From: an uncultured Acidobacteriota bacterium
GTDB lineage: Bacteria > Acidobacteriota > Thermoanaerobaculia > UBA5066 > Gp7-AA6
Assembly (NCBI GenBank): GCA_963708395.1
Contig: CAVPSG010000002.1
Location: 1,804,401 to 1,868,400, forward strand
Length of the DNA stretch: 64,000 nucleotides
Direction of reading: 5' to 3'
Positions 36,243-49,599 of the stretch are shown in pieces; position 1 is the stretch's first letter; every line of letters begins with the position of its first letter. The notes below the pieces were generated by a model. It saw nothing but the letters and a program-made list of their open reading frames with translations, had not been told where the DNA came from and searched no databases. The position numbers were made by a program, and so were the translations under genes.

Positions 36243-36318
36243 GGGCCGTTAGCTCAATTGGTAGAGCAAGAGACTCTTAATCTCTAGGTTGTAGGTTCGA
36301 GTCCTACACGGCTCACCA
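36243..36318 (+). tRNA. tRNA-Lys (anticodon CUU)
   Basis: Hand fold: acceptor GGGCCGT/ACGGCTC, D-arm GCTC-AATTGGTA-GAGC, anticodon stem AGAGA/TCTCT with loop CTCTTAA (anticodon CTT), T-arm GTAGG-TTCGAGT-CCTAC, encoded CCA. Confidence 0.85.
36286..36318 (+). repeat. attL-like direct repeat (3' end of tRNA-Lys)
   Basis: AGGTTGTAGGTTCGAGTCCTACACGGCTCACCA. Confidence 0.55.
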
Positions 36319-36761
36319 CAATTCCCTCGACAGGCGAGCAAATTGTGACCTCCCGAGGCGAGATTGTGACCTCCCGGGATTCGCGCTTCCTTCACGACGG
36401 AGCCCCCATCGAGTCCGCGCGACCAGACCGCGCCCGCGTTCGACCGTTGCCTGACGCGCGGCCGCGGCCATCGCCTGCCCGATGAGCAGCGCGATCGAAT
36501 AGACCGAGTTCATGCCGCGGGAGTGGGCGAGGAGGGTCGAAATCTGGGCGTTCGGACGGTTTGTTGGTAGAGCTCCTCTACGAGTTCGGCTCTCTGATTG
36601 CGGGCGCGACGCTTTCGCCCGGATCGCCCTGACTCGCCTGGCGAGGACCTTCCCGAACTTGTGTTCCACTTTCGCTACCGCCTTCTGGTGGGCCCGCCGC
36701 CGGGTTCTCCGACTCCTGATTTGGCGGGGCGTGCTCTCACTTGGCCGGTTCTGGGCATATG

Positions 36762-37127
36762 CTAGGCCTCTCCGGACATCTTGTCGGCAGCGAGCAGCGA
36801 CGTGTTCCCGCCGAGCGCGACCGTCCGACGCTTCAACTCGGGGGTCCAGTCCTCCTCCGGATGGCTGAAGGCTTGGGGCTCGTCGTAGGCGTTCACCATT
36901 CCGACACGCGTGCATCCCTTCACCATCTCCGGATTTACCGTCATCGTGAGGGCTTTCGCCTTCTGCGAGTCCTCGTAATCCTTGTGCCACTTCTCGACCC
37001 GACGCTCCTCCTGGAGCTTCTGGCTCTGCGACGGCGTCGTCGAGCACCCGCCCAGACAGAGACCAAAGCCGAGACCGAGGACCTCAGCCGCGGCAGTGAA
37101 CCGTCTTCCCGTCCGCGCTCGCAGCAT
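36762..37127 (-). CDS. Small lipoprotein (island cargo)
   Basis: MLRARTGRRFTAAAEVLGLGFGLCLGGCSTTP.. has a lipobox L-G-G-C; 121 aa. This is the C-terminal part of track ORF 36762..37424. Confidence 0.45.
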   Translation of the reverse strand: MLRARTGRRFTAAAEVLGLGFGLCLGGCSTTPSQSQKLQEERRVEKWHKDYEDSQKAKALTMTVNPEMVKGCTRVGMVNAYDEPQAFSHPEEDWTPELKRRTVALGGNTSLLAADKMSGEA

Positions 37128-37144
37128 CGCGCTCAGACGTCCTC

Positions 37145-37524
37145 TTACTTCCGCTTCTTGAAAGCGACGGCGCCCCGTTTGGCGAAACGAGAGGTTCGAC
37201 GGGCTGGCATTCTGCCGCCGCCGCCGGCCGCAGCGAGAATAGCCGGGACCCTCGGCAACTGTGCCCGGGCGATCGCCAGGTCGTGCATCGCCTGGAGGTT
37301 CATCCAGAACTCCGGGTAGTCCCGAGCGCGGCGCCAAACAGGATTGCAGTCTCGGGCGTGACTCCGCGCTTTCCAGTGGCGACCTCGTTAACCCGCTGAG
37401 TGGGAACGCCGAGGTGCGCTGCAAAGGTTACCTGCGCGATTCCGCGCGGCTTCAGAAACTCCTCGACTAGCATCTCTCCCGGATGCGTGGGGATCCGGTC
37501 GGTTGGCAGCATTTTGACAACCAC
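37145..37524 (-). CDS. higA: HigA-type antitoxin (XRE-family HTH); 1-nt frameshift near 37300
   Basis: MVVKMLPTDRIPTHPGEMLVEEFLKPRGIAQVTFAAHLGVPTQRVNEVATGKRGVTPETAILFGAALGTT then, after a missing C in actaccCggag, PEFWMNLQAMHDLAIARAQL... Confidence 0.6.
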
Positions 37525-37537
37525 CCTTTCTGCTGAC

Positions 37538-37828
37538 TCAGTGATAGTCGGTCAGCCTGACTTCCGCGGCGCCGGACTTATCCCATCGGAAAACGATCCG
37601 CCACTGATCGTTCACCCTGACGCTGTGAAACCCCGCCAGGGCGCCCTTCAAAGCCTCGAGCCTGTTGCCCGGTAGCGCCGCCAGATCCGACAGCTCGGCC
37701 GCGGCGTGGATAGCGTCGAGCTTCCGGAACGCGCCTTTCAGGACATCTGGACCGAACTTTCGAGCTCGCGCCGAAGCTAACCCGTTCCAGACGTCCTCCG
37801 TCGCCGCGTCACCAAAAGACGTGATCAC
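37538..37828 (-). CDS. higB: HigB-type (RelE/ParE superfamily) toxin
   Basis: (V)ITSFGDAATEDVWNG....FGPDVLKGAFRKLDAIHAAAELSDLAALPGNRLEALKG...WRIVFRWDKSGAAEVRLTDYH (HigB layout: TE..WNG, RL..L, WRI.F). GTG at 37828; an alternative ATG at 37882 is possible. Confidence 0.6.
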   Translation of the reverse strand: MITSFGDAATEDVWNGLASARARKFGPDVLKGAFRKLDAIHAAAELSDLAALPGNRLEALKGALAGFHSVRVNDQWRIVFRWDKSGAAEVRLTDYH

Positions 37829-37844
37829 GGATGGGCATAATACA

Positions 37845-37865
37845 CGAATACCGTGTATTCGTGCA
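37845..37865. promoter_or_regulatory. Perfect 9-bp inverted repeat (CACGAATAC-cgt-GTATTCGTG) directly upstream of higB; candidate autoregulatory operator
   Basis: Read directly from the sequence. Position is consistent with TA-operon operators. Confidence 0.35.
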
Positions 37866-38232
37866 ATCTGGCCTCTCGGCACCCCTTCTCCAGACCGGTC
37901 TGGGGAACTGCTGCGCCCCCGCGCTGAGCGACGCTAGGAGGGTGCCATCGCGACAGCCAGGAGCGCGGGGTTCCTCGTCATTGAGGGCGGCCGACGTAGG
38001 GCAATTCTATGTCCGGCTGGGGGCGTGGAATTCACCCCAGAACGCGAGCACGAGGGGAGAAACGTAACCCGGTCGCCTCGTGTCCGAGCCTTTAGTCCCG
38101 CTCGAGTTTAGTCCAGACGTCCATGGCCGCGGCACCGGCGTCGGCCTTGATGCGATCTCCTGCTTTGGGCGGGCCGGCGAGCCACGAATCAGTCGGCTGG
38201 ATTGTCCGGAAACGGGCTGAGGGGAATGGGTC

Positions 38233-39411
38233 TCATGCGAGCTTCTTGGCGAGTTGTTCTTCGAGGATTTCCTGGACGGTGAGAGGAATGATGATCCTCC
38301 CGGATTTCCGGAAGAACCCATCAACCTCCTTGAGTGCGTCGCTCGTGAAATCGAAGGCCACGAAAAATCCCTTCTTGGGGTTCTCCCGGGTCATCGCAGC
38401 CTCGAAGGAGTCAATTTCTGGACGTCCCACCCGATCCTTTTGCTTTACCTGGACCGGGTACCACTCATCCATGAAGTCGAGTCCAGCAGTTTCGCCTTCC
38501 TTGACCTCGCTCGTGGGAGCGGCGCCCACGGGAAACACTCGCCCGTCGATCCCCATGTCGCCGACCTGCACTTTGTTTGGAATCCCGCCGATGGCGATCA
38601 CGGCCCAATTCTCGAACTCGAACGGAGGGATCTTCCGCAGCTGATCCACGGACCATGGGAGGTCGCGCACGACGAAACCCCGCCCAATCTTCCAGAGCTT
38701 CTCGTCTTCCCGGAGCGTTGTCTCGCCCCGTAGGCGCTTCGCCATGACCCGGCAAGCCGTTGGGGATACGTCGATCCCGATCCATTGACGCTTATGCCTC
38801 TCGGCAGCTAGCAAAGCCGTGCCGCAGCCGCAGAACGCATCGAGAACAATGTCGTTTTCGTTTCTGCTTGCTTGAATGATTCGTTCCAGCAACGGTAGAG
38901 GCTTCTGCGTAGGGTAGCCGAGCGACTCGGCTGCCTGGCTGTTGATTGGCGGAATGTCGTCCCACAGGTTTTGGAGCGCGGGACCTGCTGACTCGTCGAG
39001 GTACATTTTTAGGCGCAATTGGCCGCCAGGCTTCGCAGGGAAATGAAGCCGGTTCTCTCGATCGTACTTCTCCATGCGGTCTCGGTCGCATGACCATCCA
39101 TTCGGATGTGGCTCATAGGTGATGCCGTTGCTAGCCTTGAAGGAATAGCGGAGGTTTGGTCGCTTTCCCGGATTCCGAAGCGTCACGGACTGCCAGTTTC
39201 GGCCGTCCGCGTCTCGATAGTTGAATCTCCGCTCAACGTACTCCGGCTCAAAACTCCCATGAGTCTGGTTCCACGTGTAGTCTGCCGAGTGCACGTAGTA
39301 GAAAATACTGTCGGTGATCGCCCCGAAACGTCTTCCAGCGTTCCCGTGAGCAAGACCCTCGCAGATCGGGCGATTGTGGGCTCCTGACCCCGGTTTGTGC
39401 GCTCCCGCCAC
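38233..39411 (-). CDS. DNA methyltransferase (N4/N6 beta-class, C-terminal half with motif I) fused to an Mrr-like PD-(D/E)xK restriction-endonuclease domain; N-terminal region disrupted
   Basis: ..GYPTQKPLPLLERIIQASRNENDIVLDAFCGCGTALLAAERHKRQWIGIDVS (HPTQKP/DPFxGSGT-type motifs). C-terminal GDMGIDG..EWYPVQVKQK..GFFVAFDFTSDA is an Mrr_cat-like D..(E/Q)xK core. The expected upstream DPPY/NPPY motif was not found in any frame; there are three frame changes within 39250..39420. Confidence 0.55.
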   Translation of the reverse strand: MAGAHKPGSGAHNRPICEGLAHGNAGRRFGAITDSIFYYVHSADYTWNQTHGSFEPEYVERRFNYRDADGRNWQSVTLRNPGKRPNLRYSFKASNGITYEPHPNGWSCDRDRMEKYDRENRLHFPAKPGGQLRLKMYLDESAGPALQNLWDDIPPINSQAAESLGYPTQKPLPLLERIIQASRNENDIVLDAFCGCGTALLAAERHKRQWIGIDVSPTACRVMAKRLRGETTLREDEKLWKIGRGFVVRDLPWSVDQLRKIPPFEFENWAVIAIGGIPNKVQVGDMGIDGRVFPVGAAPTSEVKEGETAGLDFMDEWYPVQVKQKDRVGRPEIDSFEAAMTRENPKKGFFVAFDFTSDALKEVDGFFRKSGRIIIPLTVQEILEEQLAKKLA

Positions 39412-40010
39412 ATGCGGTCGCCGCCTCCGCCTCGTCGACGGACTCCCGCGAGATCACGGTGAGGCCCGCGCGCTTCTCGGCAGCCCCCTCGCGCGCGGCC
39501 GCCTCCATCGCCTTGCCGACGTTCCGGGCGAGGAGGTCGTGGTCCGTGGTCGACAAACACGAGCCCGAGGGCACGGGGACGCAGGGCGCACAGGGCGAAC
39601 GCCTCGACGAAGTCAGCGAACGCGGGCCACGTCTCCCGGAGCTTCTCGATGATCTTCTCGATCTCGGGCCACGGGACGTATTTCTTGACGAGCTTCTTCC
39701 TCTTCGGAGCCTTCTGGGACTTCTTTCCGAGCCGTTTGATCTCGGGGACCGCGATGATCGCGTGACCCCGCTTCGCGTCCCGGAGGACGGAGAGCAGGAG
39801 GGAGACTTCGCCCTTGATCGTCTTCGTGACGACGCCGTCAGAGATCCGGGCGTTCCGGTACGCCTTGATGGTGTCCTCGGCCACGAACGCAGTGAGCCTG
39901 CCGATTCCGGTGCGTTCACAGATGCGGTCGAGCTTGTACCCGGCCCGGAGAGCCCACGCTGCACCCGCGTGGGCCTTGATCTCCGCGACGTCCCCTGCAC
40001 GCGGATGTTA
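39412..40010 (-). pseudogene. Tyrosine-recombinase N-terminal fragment (SAM-like core-binding domain plus start of catalytic domain), truncated or frameshifted
   Basis: GTG-initiated frame: VAEIKAHAGAAWALRAGYKLDRICERTGIGRLTAFVAEDTIKAYRNARISDGVVTKTIKGEVSLLLSVLRDAKRGHAII..KKYVPWPEIEKIIEKLRETWPAFADFVEAFALCALRPRALGLVFVDH. The frame is lost after ~150 aa and no RHR-Y catalytic part follows. Confidence 0.35.
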
Positions 40011-40089
40011 GGCGGACGCACTCGGATGCCCTCAAGATTGCAACCTCGATTGCGATGACCCAGAGTCGAAACATCGCCCAACCGGGGTC

Positions 40090-41187
40090 CTACGGCGTCG
40101 GAGTCGGGGTCGGGGTCGGGGTTTCTCGAACAATCCGAACCGCCCCCCGAGCTCGTTTCGAAAGCACAACAGGCATTCGCGGATACGGTACCGATGGTGT
40201 GGGCGTCGCAGATGTGGACTCTCCAGGGTCCAGCCGACCGATCTGGTTGCTACGGAATTGCGTAAACCAGAGGTTGCCATCTGGACCCGCCGCGATACCG
40301 TTAAGTCCGCTGTCGCCCGTGGGGATCGTGAACTCAGTGATCGTGCCGGCGGGGGTGATCCGGCCGATCTTGTTAGCCGCGTACTCTGTGAACCAGATGG
40401 CGCCGTCGGGCCCGGCCGCGATCCCGTAAGGTGCGCCGCCGGCCGCGAACTCGGTAATCGTGCCGGCCGTGGTGATCCGCCCGATCTTGTTGCCGAGATA
40501 CTCTGTGAACCAGAGGGCGCCGTCGGGCCCGGCCGCGATCTCGTAAGGTCTGCTGCCGGCCGTGGGGATCGCGAACTCGGTAATCGTGCCGGCCGTGGTG
40601 ATCCGCCCGATCTTGCTTACATTGTCTTCAGTAAACCAGAGGTTGCCGTCCGGACCTGCCGCGATGCCGTTAGGTCCGCTGACGGGTGTGGGGATCGTGA
40701 ACTCGGTAAACGCGCCGGCGGTCGTGATCCGCCCGATTTTGTTGACCCGGTCTTTGGTAAACCAGAGGTTGCCATCAGGGCCCGCCGCGATACGGTAAGG
40801 CGCGCCGGCCGTGGGAGTCGCGAACTCGGTAATCGTGCCGGCCGTGGTGATCCGCCCGATCTTGTTGCGATCAAATTCCGCAAACCAGAGATTGCCATCA
40901 TGGCCCGCCGCGATACCCCAAGGTCCGCTGCCGCCCGTGGGAATCGTGAACTCGGTAATCGTGCCGGCCGTGGTGATCCGCCCGATCTTATTGCCGAGAT
41001 ACTCTGTGAACCAGAGGGCGCCGTCGGGCCCGGCCGCGATCCCGTAAGGGGAACTCCCGGCTGTCGGGATCGGGAACTCGGTGATCATTTGGCTGCGAGC
41101 GATTCCGCCGAGGCACAGACCGACGACAGCGAGAATCAGTCGCGCGGCAGGTCCGCTGTAGATCCGGCGGGCCGTCTCGTCCTTCAC
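40090..41187 (-). CDS. Secreted seven-bladed beta-propeller protein with Vgb-lyase/NHL-like repeats and a C-terminal (Thr-Pro)n tail
   Basis: Signal peptide MKDETARRIYSGPAARLILAVVGLCLGGIA, then 7-8 repeats of ITEFxIPTxGSxPxGIAAGPDGxLWFTExxxNKIGRITTAG (the streptogramin B lyase Vgb-like repeat pattern), ending ..[11 protein letters not shown]. Confidence 0.55.
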   Translation of the reverse strand: MKDETARRIYSGPAARLILAVVGLCLGGIARSQMITEFPIPTAGSSPYGIAAGPDGALWFTEYLGNKIGRITTAGTITEFTIPTGGSGPWGIAAGHDGNLWFAEFDRNKIGRITTAGTITEFATPTAGAPYRIAAGPDGNLWFTKDRVNKIGRITTAGAFTEFTIPTPVSGPNGIAAGPDGNLWFTEDNVSKIGRITTAGTITEFAIPTAGSRPYEIAAGPDGALWFTEYLGNKIGRITTAGTITEFAAGGAPYGIAAGPDGAIWFTEYAANKIGRITPAGTITEFTIPTGDSGLNGIAAGPDGNLWFTQFRSNQIGRLDPGESTSATPTPSVPYPRMPVVLSKRARGAVRIVRETPTPTPTPTP

Positions 41188-41272
41188 AGCCTCATCTTCC
41201 CTAATGGATAGCGCGTCAGCGGCGAGCCGACCAAGCGAAGCGGGCAGCGAGGGACTTCGATGCGTGCGCGTT

Positions 41273-41830
41273 TCAGAAGCCTCCGACCGCAGGGGACGGC
41301 GCCTTTACGAGGTCGGGAAAGTGAGGAGACGTCACAACCTTTCTCAAGAGATCTTGAACCGCCGGCATGAGCGCCTGTGCGGTCTGATTGCAGGCAGTCT
41401 CACCGTAAAAGCTGCTCTTGTACTCGTAGTCTTCCGAGATCCGAAGCGATTGACCGTTCGAGGACTTCACGGTGAGGGCCAGGAGCCACCCGATGTCGAC
41501 GTGAAATCGATGGTCTCCAGATTTGCGGTCAGAGTCACGGGGCCGGTCGCGGAGAACGACTCGGCCAGCCTCAGGTCATCAACGAACGCCTTGCGGACGT
41601 AGTCCTCAAAGGTATCGCCGTCCGGAGTCTTGATCGGTCCGACAGCGCGACAGGTGATCTCCCGGCGGCCTGGCGGAGTCGCGGTAAACGGTCCGACGTT
41701 GATCTGCGGTTTCCCCAGCGCCCTCAGGGCGCTGACGTTGTCGACGGAGACCGCGTAGCGACTCGCCGCATAGGTGAAGCATCCGACGCAGCCCAGCAGG
41801 GCGACGAGGATAGCCAGATTTGAGCGATTC
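41273..41830 (-). CDS. Lipoprotein (island cargo); one frameshift near 41470
   Basis: TTG start gives (M)NRSNLAILVALLGCVGCFTYAASRYAVSVDN..TLTANLETIDFTSTSGGSWPSP, continuing in the next frame as KSSNGQSLRISEDYEYKSSFYGETACNQTAQALMPAVQDLL.. (track ORF 41273..41470). The ORF track merged the first part into the integrase ORF. Confidence 0.4.
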
Positions 41831-42119
41831 AACTGTGGATAGCTTATAGCTCCTCGGACCTGGCCTAGACCATGTCGGCGTCGATTCCCGAAGCGATCAC
41901 TGAGACATCGGGATTTCTCCTTGTCCCTTTCGGAACCTTCAGGGATTCCGCCGGTGATCGGCGGATCCGACTCGGGCCTTGTGGTCGCCGGCAAGAGCAG
42001 CGGTTCGACGGGGATCTCGGGCGCGCCCTTCTGGATCTCACGGCGGTCCCAGGGCGTTCGGACCCAGGGGAGCGCCAGTTCGCTCGCCTCTGGATTCGGT
42101 GGATCGAGCCGACCTTCAC

Positions 42120-43038
42120 CTAGCGCCACGTCGTCGCGACCGACCGATGGCGCATGAATGCTGCGAGGTCGAAGATCGGGAATTGCCGCTCGTAGAGGTG
42201 CGTGCAGCGCGAGTAACGCAAAACGTGCGGTGAGAGGTGGCGCCCCCGAGGCTCGATGCCGGCCGCCTCGACGCGCGCCTGCAGAATCGCAGCGAACTGA
42301 GCGGAGCTCACGCCCCGATCTTCGGGACCGCGGGGTGTCCCAATGCGAGGGAACAAAGCCGGATCGCGAACACCGGCAGACTCGAGCGCCATGAGGTGCG
42401 CCTGCAGGAGTTGACAGACGGTGTCGTCGAGCGCGAACACCTGCGGCTCTCGAGAACACTTGCTCTCGCGGATCACGAGGAGGGCTGGCCGGAGTGGATC
42501 TGGAGGTCGGACCGACGGAGACGACCGGGTTCCCCGCGCGGAGCGCGCATTGGTAAACGACCGCGACCATCGCGGAGTTGCATCCCTCGACGAGGTCGTG
42601 GATCCGCGAGCGCCGGTTGAACAGGACGGCCGGATCCTTTCGGCGCTGCGGGACCAGGGGGCGCTGCCAAAAGACGATGCGACCGATTTCCTCGCGCGAG
42701 AACACCGGGATGACGTCGCGCCGCTTTTCCTCGGGAGCCCGCGCGAGTCGCAGCGGGTTCTCCGGGATGTGCCCGCGGGACGCGAGGGACGAGTAGAAGG
42801 CTTTGAGTGCGGACATCCGGAGCCTCCGCGTATTCGGGGACCGCCGCGCGAGCGCCAAGCGGGCCATGTACGAGTCGGCGTCGCGGATCGTGACTGCCGC
42901 GAAGTTCTCGATCTCCATACGGCGCCGGAAGTCGGCGAGGGACTTGCGGTAGGCGACGACCGTCGACTCCGAGCGGCCGAGAACGTTGCTTAGGAAGGCG
43001 ACGAACTCCTCGACCAGGTTGGCAGGGGAGTCCGTCAT
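42120..43038 (-). pseudogene. int: Tyrosine integrase (XerC/D-like), disrupted: frameshift(s) near 42480-42540 and an in-frame TAG at the expected catalytic-Tyr codon
   Basis: N-terminus MTDSPANLVEEFVAFLSNVLGRSESTVVAYRKSLADF..ALKAFYSSLASRGHIPENP.. (core-binding). Catalytic part is in frame 42120..42476: LVIRESKCSREPQVFALDDTV..HVLRYSRCTHLYE..MRHRSVATTWR then TAG where RY(A/T)HL normally places the catalytic Tyr. Confidence 0.65.
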
Positions 43039-43156
43039 CGGGTCGCCTCTCTCGAGGCCGCCGTGTACACAAACTGTGATCTCCCGCCTGCCGCGGAGAT
43101 CCAGTTTCGGGCCTCAGGGCAATGCGAAATCGGGTGAATCGGGCAGGATGGCCGAG

Positions 43157-43189
43157 GGGTTGTATTTTCGAGTTTTACACGGCTCACCA
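43157..43189 (+). repeat. attR-like direct repeat
   Basis: GGGTTGTATTTTCGAGTTTTACACGGCTCACCA matches the tRNA 3' end at 28 of 33 positions; the last 14 nt are identical. Confidence 0.55.
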
Positions 43190-43359
43190 ACCTCGAACCG
43201 TCCGAAATCGACCAGGAATCCACCGAAACGGCCCCTCCCCACCCCAAAGGGCACTTTAACGGCCCCTCCGGAGAGCCTCCGACGAGTTACCATTGTGGCG
43301 GCCTAAATCCTGTCAGGACGACGTTTGGAACCTGCCGCGGGAGGCAGCTCGGGAGCGGT

Positions 43360-44653
43360 CATGGGCGCCGGGCAACGTGTTCGGGTCACACAGGAGATTC
43401 GAGTCCCCGACCGGGAAGAGGTCCGGGGAGACGGGCTCGCGCCTTCGCTCGAGACGCTCGTCCCCGCCGTCGCCGTCCGCCTCACCGACGGCATCCGGCT
43501 GGCCGTCGCGACCGAGGAGGTCCAGCGTCTCGAGCGCGCGCTCGCCGTCGCGCGCGCGGGTCTCGGCGGGCTCTTGCTCCTCGTCGAGACGGTCGTGCAG
43601 CTCTCGTGGCCGCGCGGCAACTGGACGCGCATCGAGCTCTCGGGGATCTACGCTCTGGTGGGGCTCGCGGTCTGGGCCAGGTTGCGCCGCCACGACTCGA
43701 CGCCGGCGCTGCGACGCGCGCTCCAGGCCTTCGACATTTTTTCGGCGGCGGTCCTCTCGCTCATGGGAGACGAGGTGCTCGTGCTCGTCGGCGTGCTGGC
43801 AATCTACGCGGCCGCGGCGCGGTGGTCGCGGATCGAGGCGATCGTGACGGCCGCGGCGATCAGCGGGCTCGTCCTGATCGGCCAGCTCGCGACGCTGATC
43901 CTCTCCTCGACGCGGCCCGATTTCGACGGGCACGCGTTCTTCTTCCGGATGTCGACGCTCTTCCTGCTCTCGTTTCTCTTCAGCCACGTGACCCGTCGCG
44001 GGAAGGAGCTTCAGGACGAGACGTTGAAGGCCAAGGCCATGGACCGGGCTCTGGTGGCGCGCGAGCTCCACGACGGGGCGATCCAGTCGCTCATCGGAAT
44101 GGAGGTTCAGGTCGACGTCCTGCGTCGGAGCGCGACGGACACGCCGGCGATGGCCGAGGAGCTGTCGCGCATCCAGGCGATGCTGCGCCGCGAGGTCCTC
44201 AACCTGCGCGAGCTGATGCGGCAGATGAAGCCGCTCGACCTCGACCCGCGCCAGCTCCTCGACTTCCTGGCGGAGTCGGTCGACAAGTTTCGCCGCGAGG
44301 CGGGCATCTCCGCGAGCTTCGTCTCGGATCTGAGGGAGCTCTCGCTGTCGCCGCGCCTCTGCGCGGAGATCGCGCGCATCGCGCAGGAGGCCCTCGTCAA
44401 CGTGCGCAAGCACAGCGGGGCCTCGAACGTCATCGTGCGGCTGAGCCTGGACGGTGACGAGGGCCGGCTCGTGGTGGACGACGACGGGCGGGGGTTCGAC
44501 TTTTCGGGCAGGCTCTCGCAGGCGGAGCTCGACGCGGCGCGCAAGGGGCCGGTGATCATCAAGGAGCGCGTGCGATCGATCGGAGGCAGTCTGGCGATCG
44601 AGTCGGCGCCGGGCCGGGGCGCGCGCCTCGAGATCACGTTTCCGAATGAATAA
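43360..44653 (+). CDS. Sensor histidine kinase, HisKA_3/DesK-NarX type (membrane domain + H-box + HATPase_c)
   Basis: 5 TM helices, H-box ARELHDGAIQSLIGM, HATPase (EALVNVRKHSGAS..DDDGRGF..GGSLAIESAPGRGARLEI). Start approximate (ATG 43360). Confidence 0.7.
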
Positions 44654-45314
44654 AGTGCTCAAGCCGATCCGCATCGTCATCGCGGACGATCACCCGATCG
44701 TGCGCGACGGCCTCCGCCGCCTGCTCGAGATCGAAAAGGACTTCGAGGTCGTGGGTCAGGCGTCCGACGGCCGCGAGGCGATCCGCCTCGTGCGCCAGCT
44801 GCGGCCGGACGTGCTGCTGCTCGACCTCGCCATGCCGCGCCTTCCGGGCCTCGAGGTGCTGCGCGAGCTGTCGTCGTCGTCGCTCGAGGTCCGGACGATT
44901 CTGCTGACGGCGGCCGTCGAAAAGGAGCAGATCGTCGAAGCGCTCCAGATCGGAGCGCGCGGCGTCGTCTCGAAGGAATCGGCGACGGAGCTCCTCTTCA
45001 AGAGCATCCGAACGGTCGTCTCCGGTCAGTACTGGGTCGGACGCGAGGAGGTCTCGGACCTCGTCGCCGCGCTGCGCGGGCTCCTGCCGACCGGCGCCGA
45101 GGAGCGCCAGCGCTCCTTCGGTCTGACTCGGCGCGAGCTCGAAATCGTGGCCGCGATCGTCGAAGGCTGCACCAACCGCGACATCGCCCAGAAGTTCTCG
45201 CTCTCCGAGGACACCGTGAAGCACCATCTCACCCACATCTTCGACAAGCTCGGCGTTTCCAACCGACTCGAGCTCGCGATGTTCGCGGTCAACCATCACC
45301 TGCCTGCCCCTTAG
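44646..45314 (+). CDS. LuxR/NarL-family response regulator
   Basis: IRIVIADDHPIVRDGLRRLLE..DVLLLDLAMP (receiver) and LTRRELEIVAAIVEGCTNRDIAQKFSLSEDTVKHHLTHIFDKLGV (LuxR HTH). Start overlaps the kinase stop. Confidence 0.85.
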   Translation: MNKVLKPIRIVIADDHPIVRDGLRRLLEIEKDFEVVGQASDGREAIRLVRQLRPDVLLLDLAMPRLPGLEVLRELSSSSLEVRTILLTAAVEKEQIVEALQIGARGVVSKESATELLFKSIRTVVSGQYWVGREEVSDLVAALRGLLPTGAEERQRSFGLTRRELEIVAAIVEGCTNRDIAQKFSLSEDTVKHHLTHIFDKLGVSNRLELAMFAVNHHLPAP

Positions 45315-45858
45315 GGAAGCGGCGATTTCCCTCGCAGACGCCACCTAAGTGCCTTCCGGCGGGCACCCGCGGGCCATTGGCTCCGGCGGCCCGGAGGCTA
45401 TCCTCGAAGCCATCGCAGCGGAGGACAAATTGGGCGCTCGGTCGGTGTCGTGGAAACCTGTCGGCTCTCCCGCTCGGTGTGTCTCCGCAAGACAACCCGA
45501 ACTGACGGGAACCTGGACAGGCTGCGCGAACCCATCGCACGCCGCCGCTCCCCTTCGGGGGGAGGCGTAGGCGTGGACACGTCGTCGCGCCCGGTGCGGG
45601 CCCGGAGTCTGGGGCGAGAGGCGGTCGGAGGTCTGACGACTCCCGACAGAGGTTGTGGCGCGACGTCGCCGGGAATCGCGGTTTCCCTTCCGCCCCTCAC
45701 CCGAGACTCCGGGCCCGGAGAGCCCTGCGTGATGTGCGAGCACCCGCGAGCCCTCCACACCGAGGGAACCGACGGCGCGGGCTGGTGCGCGCAGGGCTCC
45801 TGGTGCGAGTGCGGCGGATTTCAGGGATCGCGAGCGCTCTGAACCACAGGAGGGTGTC

Positions 45859-46254
45859 GTGAAGATCGCGTCGGAGAGGTTGTCGGGTCGGCGGGTCGGG
45901 ATGGAGCCGGAGGCGGGGCCGGCGCTCGATCGGGAGATCGAGCGGCGCGTCTGCGGCGTTCCGCCGGGCGAGGCCGTGCCGCGATATTCGACGGACGAGT
46001 CCGCGGCCGTGGCTCTGGCCAACCGGTTCTCGCGGACGCGCGGCTGGTGGTTCTTCGAGAAGAAGGAAGTCTTCGGAGGCTCCGCCTTCGGATGGATCCA
46101 GGAATCGCAGCCGCTCTTCGTGTCCGTGCACCCGATCCAGGCGAGTGCGCCGACGCGCGCGCTGGCGATCTGCCGGTCGCTTCTGAAGGTGGCCGACTTC
46201 CTCGACGCCAGGCCGCACGCCATTTCCGAGAACCGCGCGACCGCGCACGCCTGA
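45859..46254 (+). CDS. Hypothetical protein
   Basis: GTG start, 131 aa (..PRYSTDESAAVALANRFSRTRGWWFFEKK..APTRALAICRSLLKV). No confident family. Confidence 0.3.
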   Translation: MKIASERLSGRRVGMEPEAGPALDREIERRVCGVPPGEAVPRYSTDESAAVALANRFSRTRGWWFFEKKEVFGGSAFGWIQESQPLFVSVHPIQASAPTRALAICRSLLKVADFLDARPHAISENRATAHA

Positions 46255-46343
46255 TCGCGCGCTTCCGATTCCATTGCATTCCGAAGAGACCGGCCGCGCG
46301 CCGGTCTCTTCGTTTCGCGGCGTCCTGCTAAACTGCCGGCCGA

Positions 46344-46486
46344 TGGTCTGGACGCTCTTCCTGGCGCTCTTCGCGCTGTGGCTGATCGCCCACTTCGCGT
46401 TTCACATCGCGAGCGGCCTGATCCATCTGCTCCTGCTCGGCGCGGTCGTCGCCCTCGTCGTTGGCCTCGTGCGGCGCACGACCTGA
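46344..46486 (+). CDS. Small two-TM membrane protein (lmo0937-like family)
   Basis: MVWTLFLALFALWLIAHFAFHIASGLIHLLLLGAVVALVVGLVRRTT, 47 aa. The track ORF begins further upstream at 46274. Confidence 0.45.
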
Positions 46487-46501
46487 CGCCGGGCGTCCCG
46501 G

Positions 46502-46968
46502 CTACTTCACGACCTCCAGGTGCGGGTCGGCCTTGACGGGCGCCCCGCCGATTGCGGTGAAGGTCAAGTCGTACTCCACGTTCACCTTGGCCTGGCCGCC
46601 TGAGGAGGCGGCGGCATCCGAGTAGCAAAGGAAGTCCTGGCACGTGAAAGTGAAAGGAGCCGCCCCTTTGAAGACAAGGTTGGGCTTCGTGCCCAAGACC
46701 AGCCAGACGACAAAGTGCGTGTCGCTCGTCACCGTCAATGTCTCGGGAACGACCTGGTTGTTGCCGATCGCGACCGCCACGGCGACACGATTGTTGGGAT
46801 GGGCCGCCTGAATATCCGCCACCTTCTTTTGAAACAACAGGAAGAAGTCGTGCGGCGGTGGCGGCGGGTTCCCACCTCCGGGACAACTGTCTCCCAGCAA
46901 CACCAGGCTTCCGGTCAGAAGCGCCAGAACGCGCAGTCCCAGGGATGGCCCAGAGCCCTTTCGCATAA
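46502..46968 (-). CDS. Secreted hypothetical protein
   Basis: MRKGSGPSLGLRVLALLTGSLVLLGDSCPGGG signal peptide, about 125-aa beta-rich mature part with 4 Cys. The ATG at 46968 lies just downstream of the kinase gene stop. Confidence 0.4.
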
Positions 46969-47001
46969 CCCCTCCTCTCCTCTCGAAGCGAACGAATCCC
47001 C

Positions 47002-49599
47002 TCAGGCCGCATCCTTCTTCGCGGTGATTCGAGTCCTGTAGGCCGGCGTCTTTCGCAGCGCCGCGAACTCCGGCTCGCGCTCGATCGTGCCGAGTCCCAG
47101 CCCCGCCTCCACGGCCTGCTCGATCCACCCGACCGCGTCATCGGTCTTTCCGAGGAGATTCGAGACGACCGCGGCGTCGTAGAACGAGTCGGGATTTCCC
47201 GGCTCGATCTCGAGCGCCTTGCGGATGGCGGCGAGGCCATCCGCCGCCTTGCCGGTCTTGGCGAGCGCGAGTCCGAGCGTGCAGAGCGCGCGGGCGTCGC
47301 GCGGATCGACCCCGAGCTCCTGCCGCGCGAGCGAGATCGCCTTTTCGTACGCGGCCGCCGCCCTCGGCCGTTCGCCGGGCGCCCAGCGGTAGGCGTCGCC
47401 GAGGTTGGCCCAGTAGAGCGACTTGCCGGGAGTGAGCGCCGTGGCCTTCTCGAAAGAGCCGGCGGAATCGGCGTAGCGGCCGAGGAAGAACTGCAGCGTC
47501 CCGAGGTTCGAGTAGGCGCCGTCGCTCGGCGCGATCGCGGCGGACTTCTGGAAGGCCTCGAGCGCGTCGTCGAAGCGGTCGGCCTGCTCGTAGGCGGCAC
47601 CGAGGTTGTTCCACGCGCGCACGTTGTCGGGCGTCTTCGCGACGACCTCCCGGAACATCTCGGCAGCCTGAGGATATCGCCCGATCGAGTAGTCGAACAC
47701 GCCGTAGTGGTTGTACGGCACCCACGACCCGGGCTGCAGGGCCACCGCGCGCTTGTGGCAGCCCTCCGCCTCGTCGTTGCGACCCACCGACTGATACGCC
47801 TCGGCGAGGCCCAGGAGGCCCTCGAGTGAATCCGGCGCCTGCGAGAGAGCGATCTGGAATTCGCTCACGGCCTCGGCGCCTTTCCCGGTGCGCGACAGGA
47901 CGAGCCCTCGCGCGACGTGGACCTCGGGAATCCCGGGGTCGAGACGCGTCGCGCGTTCGGCGGCCTCGATGGCCCGGTCCGCCCAGTCCTTCTCCCGCGT
48001 GATCGTATATTCGTGAAGGCACGCGCGCGCGAGCGCGGACTGCACGAGCGCCGAGCCCGGGACTTCCGAGGCGAGCGGGTTCAGGATCGCGAGGGCGGCC
48101 TCGACCGACTCCTTCCGGTCGTATCTCTGGAGATAGCCGAGCGCCTCGAGGTAGCGCTCCTGCTGGCTCGTCGTCACGAGGCCCGTCGGAAGCGGCGTCC
48201 TCCGCCCGGCCGGGGTCGCGTGGAGGTCGCGCGCGACGCGGTCGGTCAGCTGATCCTGGATCGCGAAGATGTTCGAGGCGGTTCCCGTCACCTCGCCTCC
48301 GCCGACCTGCCGGCGCTCGTGCGTCTGCCAGACCGACCACGTAAAGCGGAGCCGGTCGCCCTCCTGCTGTGTCGCGCCGACGAGCACGTAGTCGGCTCCG
48401 AGGTCGCGGGCGATGCGGAACGGATCGCGCTGCCGGTCCGCGGCTTCGACGACGACCGACGGCGTGACGACCTGGACGCCCGAGAGATTGGAGAGGCGGG
48501 CGCTGACGGTCTCGACGAGGCCTTCGCCGATCCGCTGGCCGTCGGGCCGTCCCGAGAGGTCGCGGAAGGGGAGGACCGCGAGCAGCCGCGGCGCCCCCGG
48601 CGAAGCCGGCGCCGCGGCGCGGGGGCGATACGCGAGCCAGAGGCCGGCCGCGACGCCGAGGCCGGCGAGGATCGCGAGCACGAGGCGCCGCTCGCGCGGG
48701 CTCGGCAGGGCAGCCGTCCCGCCGGACCGGTCGCCGCTCGCGATGTACGCGTCCTCGAGCGCGATCCGCGCATCGCCGATGTCCCGCAGGCGGCGGTTCG
48801 GGTCCTTCTGGAGGCAGCGCTCGAGCAGCTCGCGCACGCGCGCCGGCGTCGCCGCCGGCAGCGCGGACCAGTCGGGCTCCTTCGTCGCGACGTTGATGAG
48901 AACGTCCGGCGGGCTCTCGCCCGTGAACGCCCGGCGGCCGGTGAGCATCTCGAAGAGAACGCAGCCGAAGGACCAGACGTCCGTCCGCTTGTCCACCGTG
49001 CGCCCGCGCGCCTGTTCGGGGCTCATGAACTCGACGGTGCCGACGATGACGCCGGGCCGCGTCTCGTCGAGCCGCAGCGTCGGCGACTCGGAGGAGTCGC
49101 GAGAGTCCTCCGCCTTCGGATCCATCGCCTTGGCGAGCCCGAGGTCGAGGACCTTGACGCGCCCTTCGGGCGTGATCTTGATGTTCGCCGGCTTCAGATC
49201 GCGGTGGACGATTCCTTTCTCGTGCGCCGCCTCGAGGCCCTCGGCGATCTGGCGCGCCGCGCCGAGCGCCTCGCGCAGCGGCATCGGGCCGCGCGCGAGG
49301 ATCTGCGACAGCGTCTGGCCCGGGACGAGCTCCATCACGATGTAGCGGATCGGGCCGGATTCCTCGAGCCCGTAAATCGCCGCGAGGTTCGGGTGGTTGA
49401 TCGCCGCGAGCATTCGCGCTTCGCGGTCGAAGCGCGTGAGCTTCGCGGCGTCCTGCGCGAAGGCCTCCGGAAGAATCTTGATCGCGACTTCGCGGCCGAG
49501 CTTACGGTCGTGGGCCCGGTACACCTCGCCCATACCGCCCGCTCCCAGCGGTCCGAGGACCTCATAGGAGCCGAGGCTCGTTCCCGGATCGAGGCTCAT
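47002..49599 (-). CDS. Ser/Thr protein kinase with TM helix and extracytoplasmic sensor/TPR domain
   Basis: Hanks kinase motifs GPLGAGGMGEVYRA, VAIK, HRDLKPANI, DLGLA, GTVEFMSPEQ. TM RLVLAILAGLGVAAGLWLAY. C-terminal TPRs. 865 aa, intact. Confidence 0.85.
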   Translation of the reverse strand: MSLDPGTSLGSYEVLGPLGAGGMGEVYRAHDRKLGREVAIKILPEAFAQDAAKLTRFDREARMLAAINHPNLAAIYGLEESGPIRYIVMELVPGQTLSQILARGPMPLREALGAARQIAEGLEAAHEKGIVHRDLKPANIKITPEGRVKVLDLGLAKAMDPKAEDSRDSSESPTLRLDETRPGVIVGTVEFMSPEQARGRTVDKRTDVWSFGCVLFEMLTGRRAFTGESPPDVLINVATKEPDWSALPAATPARVRELLERCLQKDPNRRLRDIGDARIALEDAYIASGDRSGGTAALPSPRERRLVLAILAGLGVAAGLWLAYRPRAAAPASPGAPRLLAVLPFRDLSGRPDGQRIGEGLVETVSARLSNLSGVQVVTPSVVVEAADRQRDPFRIARDLGADYVLVGATQQEGDRLRFTWSVWQTHERRQVGGGEVTGTASNIFAIQDQLTDRVARDLHATPAGRRTPLPTGLVTTSQQERYLEALGYLQRYDRKESVEAALAILNPLASEVPGSALVQSALARACLHEYTITREKDWADRAIEAAERATRLDPGIPEVHVARGLVLSRTGKGAEAVSEFQIALSQAPDSLEGLLGLAEAYQSVGRNDEAEGCHKRAVALQPGSWVPYNHYGVFDYSIGRYPQAAEMFREVVAKTPDNVRAWNNLGAAYEQADRFDDALEAFQKSAAIAPSDGAYSNLGTLQFFLGRYADSAGSFEKATALTPGKSLYWANLGDAYRWAPGERPRAAAAYEKAISLARQELGVDPRDARALCTLGLALAKTGKAADGLAAIRKALEIEPGNPDSFYDAAVVSNLLGKTDDAVGWIEQAVEAGLGLGTIEREPEFAALRKTPAYRTRITAKKDAA

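Follow-up and report, generated by a model that had tools for sequence, protein, structure and literature searches.

A tRNA-Lys(CUU) gene lies on the forward strand of the 64,000-nucleotide stretch of DNA that was analysed (the window), and an imperfect copy of its 3' end recurs at the far side of an interval of 6,871 bp (36319-43189). The features of this locus are as follows:

36243-36318, forward strand: tRNA-Lys(CUU), recognised by ARAGORN and Rfam; an intact gene whose 3' end is the proposed target of integration
36287-36318, forward strand: attL copy of the 32-nt repeat (repeat finder), with its perfect block at 36305-36318
36342-36376, forward strand: perfect 14-nt direct repeat pair a, ATTGTGACCTCCCG, copies at 36342 and 36363
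36421-36552, reverse strand: int2a, C-terminal stump of a tyrosine integrase of about 400 aa (tblastn)
36762-37127, reverse strand: lipoprotein 1, 121 aa, lipobox LGGC, no family match
37145-37512, reverse strand: higA antitoxin gene, 122 aa (TIGR02607), intact in the short-read contig L085
37538-37828, reverse strand: higB toxin gene, 96 aa (PF05015, 57.2 bits against a cut-off of 27)
38233-39351, reverse strand: gene that has lost its 5' end and encodes a beta-class N6/N4 DNA methyltransferase joined to an Mrr-like nuclease at the C-terminus (Pfam, homologue alignment)
39373-39407, forward strand: degenerate 14-nt repeat pair b, copies at 39373 and 39394, three mismatches each
39400-39989, reverse strand: int2b, second remnant of the int2 integrase family (tblastn)
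40090-41187, reverse strand: seven-bladed beta-propeller of the Vgb_lyase family, 365 aa (Pfam Vgb_lyase, E 2e-122)
41273-41470, reverse strand: small open reading frame, 65 aa, with codon-position GC as its sole support and no family match
41467-41832, reverse strand: lipoprotein 2, 121 aa, TTG start at 41832, lipobox LLGC, no family match
42120-43038, reverse strand: int1, pseudogene of a XerC/D-like tyrosine recombinase (profile matches)
43073-43086, forward strand: third copy of the 14-nt repeat, ACTGTGATCTCCCG, two mismatches
43158-43189, forward strand: attR, where the tRNA 3' end recurs with four mismatches (repeat finder), with its perfect block at 43176-43189

The repeat finder showed that attL and attR are identical at 28 of 32 positions, that the final 14 nt are perfect and that the four differences all fall in the T-stem. 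The initial annotation had described the repeat, 6.9 kb downstream of the tRNA, as 33 nt long, and with its extra base the identity is 28/33, the last 14 nt again being perfect. It had also raised the possibility of a tRNA-like similarity found elsewhere, but within the window the 13-mer ACACGGCTCACCA occurs at two sites only, attL and attR, compared with 0.05 expected, and a 23-mer with up to three mismatches matches the same two repeat sites only (0.00 expected). The island is thereby bounded by a tRNA gene on one side and by a repeat of its 3' end on the other, and both junctions are spanned by independent short-read contigs of run ERR11563127 (attL by L088, attR by L080). A third, internal copy of the att core is absent from the island beyond chance 7-10-mers. 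The tRNA was the sole match to Rfam, a scan for promoters and terminators yielded nothing exceeding shuffled sequences, and a search with the whole island against phages and plasmids returned gene-level matches only (the methyltransferase, Vgb-family and HigBA genes).

The composition of the island is unlike that of the host. Its GC content is 63.3%, compared with 68.7% for the remainder of the window, and lies below that of all 174 other windows of 6.9 kb (minimum 65.7%); its tetranucleotide distance of 0.265 exceeds that of the other windows (0.130 +/- 0.027, maximum 0.212) by about five standard deviations. The segment had been thought A/T-richer than its flanks from the sequence alone, and the proposed windowed GC and tetranucleotide analyses place it beyond the range of the other windows in both measures. 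The comparison with relatives that had likewise been proposed is equally clear: four related Thermoanaerobaculia genomes (L002, L003, L004 and L079), representing three levels of divergence, all have an empty site, in which the tRNA-Lys gene, identical to that of the window in 76/76 positions, is separated by about 130 bp from the same histidine kinase gene downstream. The empty site corresponds exactly to the sequence left of attL joined to that right of attR, and from position 43190 on the window reads as the empty sites do. In the closest of these genomes the flanks are 98-99% identical at the nucleotide level, and in the most distant one the kinase shares 72% amino acid identity. The claim of site-specific integration into tRNA-Lys is thus borne out by the repeats, the empty site in 4/4 relatives and the foreign composition.

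Among the cargo genes, the HigB/HigA pair reported between the repeats is indeed present: the RelE-fold, HigB-like toxin (PF05015) and the HTH antitoxin HigA (TIGR02607) both exceed their curated cut-offs, and the antitoxin is encoded 3' of the toxin, which is the gene order of known HigB/HigA type II toxin-antitoxin systems. The window HigA continues for about 35 aa past the C-terminal end of the model, in a basic stretch. In the window assembly the C4 run at position 37314 is one C short and the higA frame is broken; HigA scores 61.6 bits as assembled and 90.5 bits after a 1-nt repair as in L085 (cut-off 47.7). HigBA is probably intact; the frameshift is a homopolymer difference from this short-read contig. 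At least two apparent frameshifts in the window (in higA and at 42531 in int1) fall in homopolymers whose length differs from that in short-read contigs of the same population, and therefore single-base frameshifts in the window assembly alone are unreliable.

The gene initially described as a methyltransferase-Mrr nuclease fusion does contain both domains, but it lacks its 5' part and represents only a fragment of a common family of proteins of about 500 aa. Its homology begins at residue ~124 of relatives of about 495 aa, so that the first ~123 codons are missing, and the N-terminal part was not found anywhere in the window. The open reading frame matches positions 92-219 of the PF01555 profile and reaches 23 bits with PF04471 (Mrr_cat; cut-off 21). 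From residue ~124 to the end it is 60-79% identical to many full-length members of the PF01555 methyltransferase-Mrr family (about 490-510 aa), and it has kept the FCGCG SAM-binding motif (motif I) and the D...QVK nuclease motif. The catalytic motif IV, DPPF, is absent, whereas full-length members of the family possess residues 1-123 including this motif. Because these residues are missing, the copy in the window cannot be an active methyltransferase.

The propeller, which had been called Vgb-lyase-like, is a member of the Vgb_lyase family but falls far below the cut-offs of the Vgb enzymes themselves (282 and 267 bits with the NCBIfam models of Vgb(A) and Vgb(B), cut-offs 600). It shares the Vgb_lyase match and the seven-bladed architecture with the streptogramin B lyase Vgb (PDB 2Z2N; phmmer E 3.5e-108), and its seven blades of about 42 aa are on average 70% mutually identical. 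Unlike Vgb, it begins with a signal peptide, ends in a (TP)n tail and lacks the catalytic histidines. The catalytic residues of Vgb, which we take to be His228, Glu268 and His270, correspond to His, Glu and His at these positions of the 2z2n sequence; in the window protein none of the 7/7 blades has a histidine at the equivalent position, and its single histidine is residue 96. Exact-protein look-ups of the Vgb-like open reading frame and of P0016 gave no matches. The two lipoproteins announced between the repeats are both there, each with a lipobox.

The tyrosine integrase noted as abutting the distal repeat, int1, is a tyrosine recombinase gene, but it has become a pseudogene. One frameshift, at ~42480, is also found in short-read contigs, another, at 42531, is confined to the window assembly, and a TAG stands at the codon of the catalytic tyrosine (42122-42120). 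Its profile matches cover the SAM-like and catalytic domains only. A word-indexed protein search for relatives returned only fragments of the same pseudogene, and a scan of metagenome contigs revealed none.

The other two recombinase genes are remnants. The stump int2a, next to the tRNA, corresponds to residues 346-390 of P0124 (tblastn, 36552-36421, E 4e-8); it comprises 44 residues of about 400, carries the HSRGxNSxY end, and its 3' end faces the tRNA. This is the region that had been listed as a possible transposase remnant, a claim that has to be replaced, as tblastn identifies the C-terminus of another integrase family instead. An IS transposase remnant at 36313-37047 was considered and rejected: Pfam, NCBIfam, PHROG and PADLOC gave no match even at E<=10, and the region matches an integrase C-terminus. 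The second integrase fragment between the repeats, int2b (39.4-40.0 kb), is present as stated. It consists of residues 97-240 (39989-39552; tblastn, E 1e-39), an out-of-frame jump and then a C-terminal tail at ~39531-39400, the match of which is weak alone (54% over 39 aa, pairwise E 0.19); it has neither a start codon nor a catalytic core. Tyrosine-recombinase genes thus adjoin both att sites, int2a at attL and int1 at attR, and both are defective; counting int2b, none of the three genes encodes an intact integrase with its catalytic tyrosine.

A word-indexed protein search with the int2 fragment found no relatives; a full HMMER search led to P0124, P0125 and P0126 (393-404 aa), which are phrog_1 integrases (E 1e-21 to 1e-25). 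Neither P0124 nor P0125 is matched by Pfam, and P0126 reaches 25 bits, which is less than the cut-off. In other assemblies, two of these three closest relatives directly adjoin an identical tRNA-Lys 3' end. For P0126 the distance is 43 nt, in the same convergent geometry, and the tRNA-Lys(CUU) concerned matches that of the window in 76/76 positions; P0125 ends 50 nt from the same 3' end. P0124 lies 55 nt from a tRNA-Asn. The intact int2-type elements were recovered as short pieces only. A tblastx comparison of the relatives with the island contributed nothing, because of the noise at this GC content.

Short direct repeats accompany the integrase ends. Pair a, spaced by 21 nt and starting 23 nt from the tRNA end, is a candidate for arm-type integrase sites. 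Pair b has exactly the same spacing and directly abuts the methyltransferase breakpoint; single matches as poor as its copies are expected by chance, and only their spacing and position are improbable. The third copy has the same orientation and lies 71 nt from the attR repeat. Two CACA-containing repeats, ~21 nt apart and ~22 nt from the junction, are common to all five junction regions. The segment 36342-36494 aligns to 39373-39531, so that the combination of paired repeats and integrase C-terminal tail occurs twice, 3.03 kb apart and in the same orientation, and the start of the methyltransferase homology (39351) lies within 5 nt of the end of the paralogous region.

The reading that we favour, with a probability of about 0.8, is that 36319-43189 is an islet that integrated site-specifically at the 3' end of tRNA-Lys(CUU), as two tandem elements, and then decayed. 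The incoming element would have brought with it a sequence that imperfectly matched the final 32 nt of the tRNA. A crossover within the perfect 14-nt block would have rebuilt the tRNA at attL and placed the imperfect version from the element at attR. The enzyme that targeted the site was, judging from the relatives, most likely of the ~400-aa int2 type, the gene of which would normally adjoin the tRNA, pointing its 3' end at it across two short direct repeats. The repeat pair of 21-nt spacing after each int2 copy suggests the tandem accretion and subsequent decay of two related elements, a (36319-39351) and b (39352-43189). Later deletions would have removed most of int2a and the catalytic core of int2b, of both of which only fragments are left, as well as the a/b boundary and, with it, codons 1-123 of the methyltransferase-Mrr gene. 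The unrelated XerC-like recombinase int1 beside attR is also dead. The island would be unlikely to excise on its own, because it holds no intact recombinase, and it may persist as a strain-variable remnant, perhaps kept in place by HigBA, which seems intact. The island also encodes two lipoproteins and a secreted propeller of the Vgb family.

An unlikely alternative, although the strongest competitor, is a single 6.9-kb element integrated by int1, in which the int2 fragments were junk that it already carried. It would account for the position of int1, which abuts attR with a 14-nt repeat copy 34 nt upstream of its start codon, and for the location of all three good copies of this repeat at the two ends of the island. 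However, int1 cannot be linked to any tRNA site, as relatives were not found, and its profile matches are restricted to two domains, whereas members of the int2 family adjoin exactly this tRNA end, with the same arrangement of repeats, in two further assemblies, and a second, paralogous copy of repeat pair and tail lies inside the island. Thus int1 was probably not the enzyme that chose the site; it could conceivably have been the integrase of the last insertion, because it adjoins attR with a repeat copy just upstream. Next to negligible is the idea that the ancestor already had the island and that the relatives lost it when the DNA between the direct repeats was deleted. A perfect 14-nt direct repeat could allow precise deletion, but the site is empty in all four relatives across the three divergence levels, the composition is foreign, and the island holds remnants of an integrase family that inserts at this very site.

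The islet had been singled out as the best place for a new defence arrangement, that is, an active defence/addiction island combining a toxin-antitoxin module, a single-chain restriction-modification-like enzyme and a secreted lyase. In its favour, both HigB and HigA score above the thresholds of their families, the higA frame is unbroken in L085, and the Mrr_cat and SAM-binding parts of the methyltransferase are conserved. Nevertheless, the proposal did not hold and is very improbable: the methyltransferase has lost its DPPF-containing N-terminus, all three recombinase genes are defective, and the propeller is far below the Vgb cut-off and has one histidine only. PADLOC detected no complete defence system in the window and recognised only the methyltransferase fragment, with methyltransferase models. 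As all three integrase genes and the methylase-nuclease gene are broken, the locus is an ordinary decaying island rather than a new defence system.

Like other islands in tRNA genes, this one targets the tRNA 3' end and rebuilds the tRNA with a direct repeat, has integrase genes at its boundaries and a foreign composition, and varies in presence among close strains. Unlike them, it is very small (6.9 kb) and lacks an intact recombinase, an excisionase, and transfer or phage genes. The class includes P4-type islands and the tandem accretion of elements at one att site, as with ICE/CIME in streptococci. The decayed recombinase genes and the two paralogous integrase-end modules in the same orientation resemble accreted islands, whereas the internal att copy expected of tandem arrays is missing. 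That no third att core copy survives within the island speaks against tandem accretion.

The significance of these results beyond annotation is small. They show that tRNA-Lys(CUU) is a hot spot of insertion in Thermoanaerobaculia from soil, with occupancy that varies among strains, link a small, Pfam-poor integrase family to this site, illustrate the rapid decay of such islets and warn that pseudogene calls from the window assembly alone are unsafe.

The int2 type is barely detected by Pfam, and it may represent a poorly described clade of tyrosine integrases. Such a clade may specifically recognise the 3' ends of tRNA-Lys(CUU) and tRNA-Asn and use a conserved pair of CACA-containing arm sites ~21 nt apart. 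If so, the int2b arm region that abuts codon 124 of the methyltransferase gene may reflect integrase-mediated recombination with a secondary, non-tRNA site. The full-length methyltransferase-Mrr family, of which this window has only a truncated copy, could be an uncharacterised single-chain restriction-modification gene. Taken jointly, these three proposals form a speculative reading that we regard as doubtful. The sources annotate the full-length family as adenine-specific DNA methyltransferase, and no functional study of it was found in the literature, where a Type IIG fragment that came up proved to be unrelated. Its members of ~500 aa accompany integrases and toxin-antitoxin modules in L086 and L087, and the integrase beside the methyltransferase in L087 is unrelated to int2.

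The last 32 nt of a tRNA-Lys(CUU) gene recur about 6.9 kb downstream, at 43158-43189, with 28/32 identity and a perfect match over the final 14 nt, in agreement with the initial annotation. The target gene and the propeller reading frame within the enclosed DNA are:

36243-36318, plus strand: tRNA-Lys(CUU), ARAGORN and Rfam concordant
40090-41187, minus strand: Vgb_lyase-family propeller, Vgb_lyase E 2e-122

Within the window, the repeat does not behave as a generic tRNA-like sequence: the 13-mer ACACGGCTCACCA occurs at just two sites, the tRNA-Lys 3' end and the distal repeat (0.05 expected), and a 23-mer search allowing up to three mismatches returns the same two repeat sites only (0.00 expected). 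All four differences of the distal copy (attR) lie in the T-stem and are non-compensatory, and ARAGORN calls no tRNA at 43158-43189, so that this copy is not itself a tRNA. The first base past the distal CCA, position 43190, is a single variable position directly outside the repeat (A in the window, C in the related genomes L079 and L002, T in L003 and G in L004).

The repeats enclose 6,871 bp that are, as had been suspected, A/T-richer than their surroundings, with a GC content of 63.3% versus 68.7% in the remaining window; this is lower than in 174/174 other windows of the same size, and their tetranucleotide distance exceeds that of other windows by about 5 sd. Empty sites were sought with the downstream histidine kinase (43325-44653) as query and one genome per species, a scan that yielded Thermoanaerobaculia/Acidobacteriota MAGs. 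In L002, L003 and L004 (94%, 91% and 72% amino acid identity), some 130 bp separate tRNA-Lys(CUU) from the kinase downstream of it, and in alignment the empty site corresponds to the left side of the window's attL, the repeat copy in the tRNA gene, joined to the right side of attR. An exact-protein look-up with the response regulator retrieved L079, which has flanks 98-99% identical to the window and an empty site, and the short-read contig L080, which is occupied and 99.98% identical to the window across 41020-46947; the attL junction is spanned by another contig of the same population (L088, 37316-36290). It follows that the island exists, that its presence varies between close strains and that assembly did not produce it, and the initial reading of a tRNA-integrated island holds on the att repeat, the deviant composition, the empty sites and both junctions in independent contigs.

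Short-read-type contigs of the same population (L085, L080 and L088) have one homopolymer base more than the window at both 37314 and 42531, and the window has a further gap within 36290-37316. The missing base at 37314 breaks the higA frame, and that at 42531 causes one of the two shifts that disrupt int1, the XerC/D-like recombinase gene beside attR; the higA frameshift and this one in int1 are false, made by short homopolymers in the window assembly. The proposed HigB/HigA pair is probably intact: HigB (96 aa) meets its Pfam cut-off, HigA is intact in L085 (122 aa), and with the base restored its TIGR02607 match improves to 90.5 bits, against 61.6 as assembled, and covers profile positions 2-80 of 81.

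The SAM-like N-domain and the catalytic domain of int1 lie in separate frames. In the short-read contigs, too, the N-terminal ORF of 188 aa ends in SGQPSS and the catalytic part forms a distinct 118-aa ORF. The position equivalent to the catalytic tyrosine, directly after HRSVATTWR, is a TAG codon. Reconstructed int1 has full-length matches to the phrog_1 and XerC/XerD models; neither a word-indexed protein search nor a metagenome contig scan found relatives. Thus int1 is a pseudogene. The first 145 residues of P0002, a protein on a 757-nt ENA contig, are identical to int1 and are followed by unrelated sequence; this could reflect an alternative junction, or a variant of the island with a deletion, in another sample.

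The second integrase fragment of the initial annotation was recovered as a remnant of another family, int2. The fragment has a weak phrog_1 match and returned nothing in the word-indexed protein search; a full HMMER search led to P0124, P0125 and P0126 (393-404 aa), which are phrog_1 integrases (PHROG, E from 1e-21 to 1e-25) that Pfam barely detects, with no match or a sub-threshold one. At E<=0.001, the 154-aa fragment had just five matches in a library of 1.84 billion proteins. In tblastn, residues 97-240 of the int2 proteins align with 39989-39552 (E 1e-39) and residues 346-390, including the HSRGxNSxY end, with 36552-36421 (E 4e-8), so that the supposed transposase remnant beside the tRNA is instead an int2-family C-terminus. 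This remnant directly adjoins attL, its 3' end toward the tRNA. The relatives are similarly placed, with 43 nt between P0126 and a tRNA-Lys(CUU) identical to that of the window, 50 nt between P0125 and the same tRNA-Lys end at a contig edge, and 55 nt between P0124 and a tRNA-Asn. Because the relatives adjoin tRNA ends and the remnant lies beside attL, int2 is the leading candidate for the family whose integrase selected the tRNA-Lys site. An HTH_17 (excisionase-like) gene lies upstream in two other loci (L090 and L091).

The 14-mer ATTGTGACCTCCCG is perfect at 36342 and 36363, with a further copy at 43073 that has two mismatches; the three share one strand and lie at the island ends, and 0/100 shuffles had three hits. 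Allowing three mismatches, at which about 5 hits are expected by chance per 128 kb (both strands), adds 39373 and 39394, again spaced by exactly 21 nt; for two such hits on one strand at a given spacing, we calculate an expectation of about 2e-4. Two CACA-containing repeats with conserved spacing are common to 5/5 integrase-to-junction regions. The region 36342-36494 aligns with 39373-39531, and the frame at 39531-39400 resembles an integrase C-terminal tail, a likeness weak by itself (54% over 39 aa, E 0.19). The second copy of this region ends no more than 5 nt from the breakpoint of the methyltransferase-Mrr nuclease fusion gene (38233-39351, minus strand). We infer that two int2-type elements accreted in tandem and that a subsequent deletion, possibly integrase-mediated, took their boundary together with the 5' part of the MTase gene, although no internal copy of the att core survives inside the island.

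The 392-aa fusion ORF matches Mrr_cat, and PF01555 only from profile position 92 on. It belongs to a large family whose members have about 490-510 aa and are 60-79% identical to it; alignment and tblastn place the start of homology at residue ~124, window position 39351, and find the DPPF-bearing N-terminal part nowhere in the window. It is a dead gene fragment. PADLOC matched MTase models alone, on this ORF alone, and the new defence arrangement that had been proposed is not confirmed. Full-length homologues (about 490 aa, sharing 74-77% identity with the fragment) occur in two other loci: the one in L087 (4803-7473 region) immediately follows an integrase that is linked to tRNA-Phe and accompanied by prophage-like genes, and the one in L086 (6001-8537 region) adjoins a BrnT/BrnA toxin-antitoxin pair. 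For this widespread family, no functional study was found in the literature. Profile searches gave no family match for either lipoprotein or for a 65-aa ORF, and the known phages and plasmids searched held nothing island-like beyond single-gene similarity. The island is a small decaying islet of a well-known kind at a tRNA hot spot, and is probably immobile.

The Vgb-lyase-like propeller keeps its family assignment, but it scores under the NCBIfam Vgb cut-offs and has a single histidine, and by both measures it is no streptogramin lyase. Its seven blades of about 42 aa have a mean pairwise identity of 70%. Identity between blades 1 and 5 reaches 93%, and the DNA has tandem periods of 126, 249 and 375 nt; recent amplification or homogenisation of blades is suggested. 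Outside the island, 46532-47052 is a second variable spot, at which the window aligns with neither L002 nor L079 though both flanks do; the GC content drops to 0.62, and the window has a 208-aa ORF without a Pfam match (46502-47128, minus strand) at a place occupied in L079 by a different 138-aa gene.
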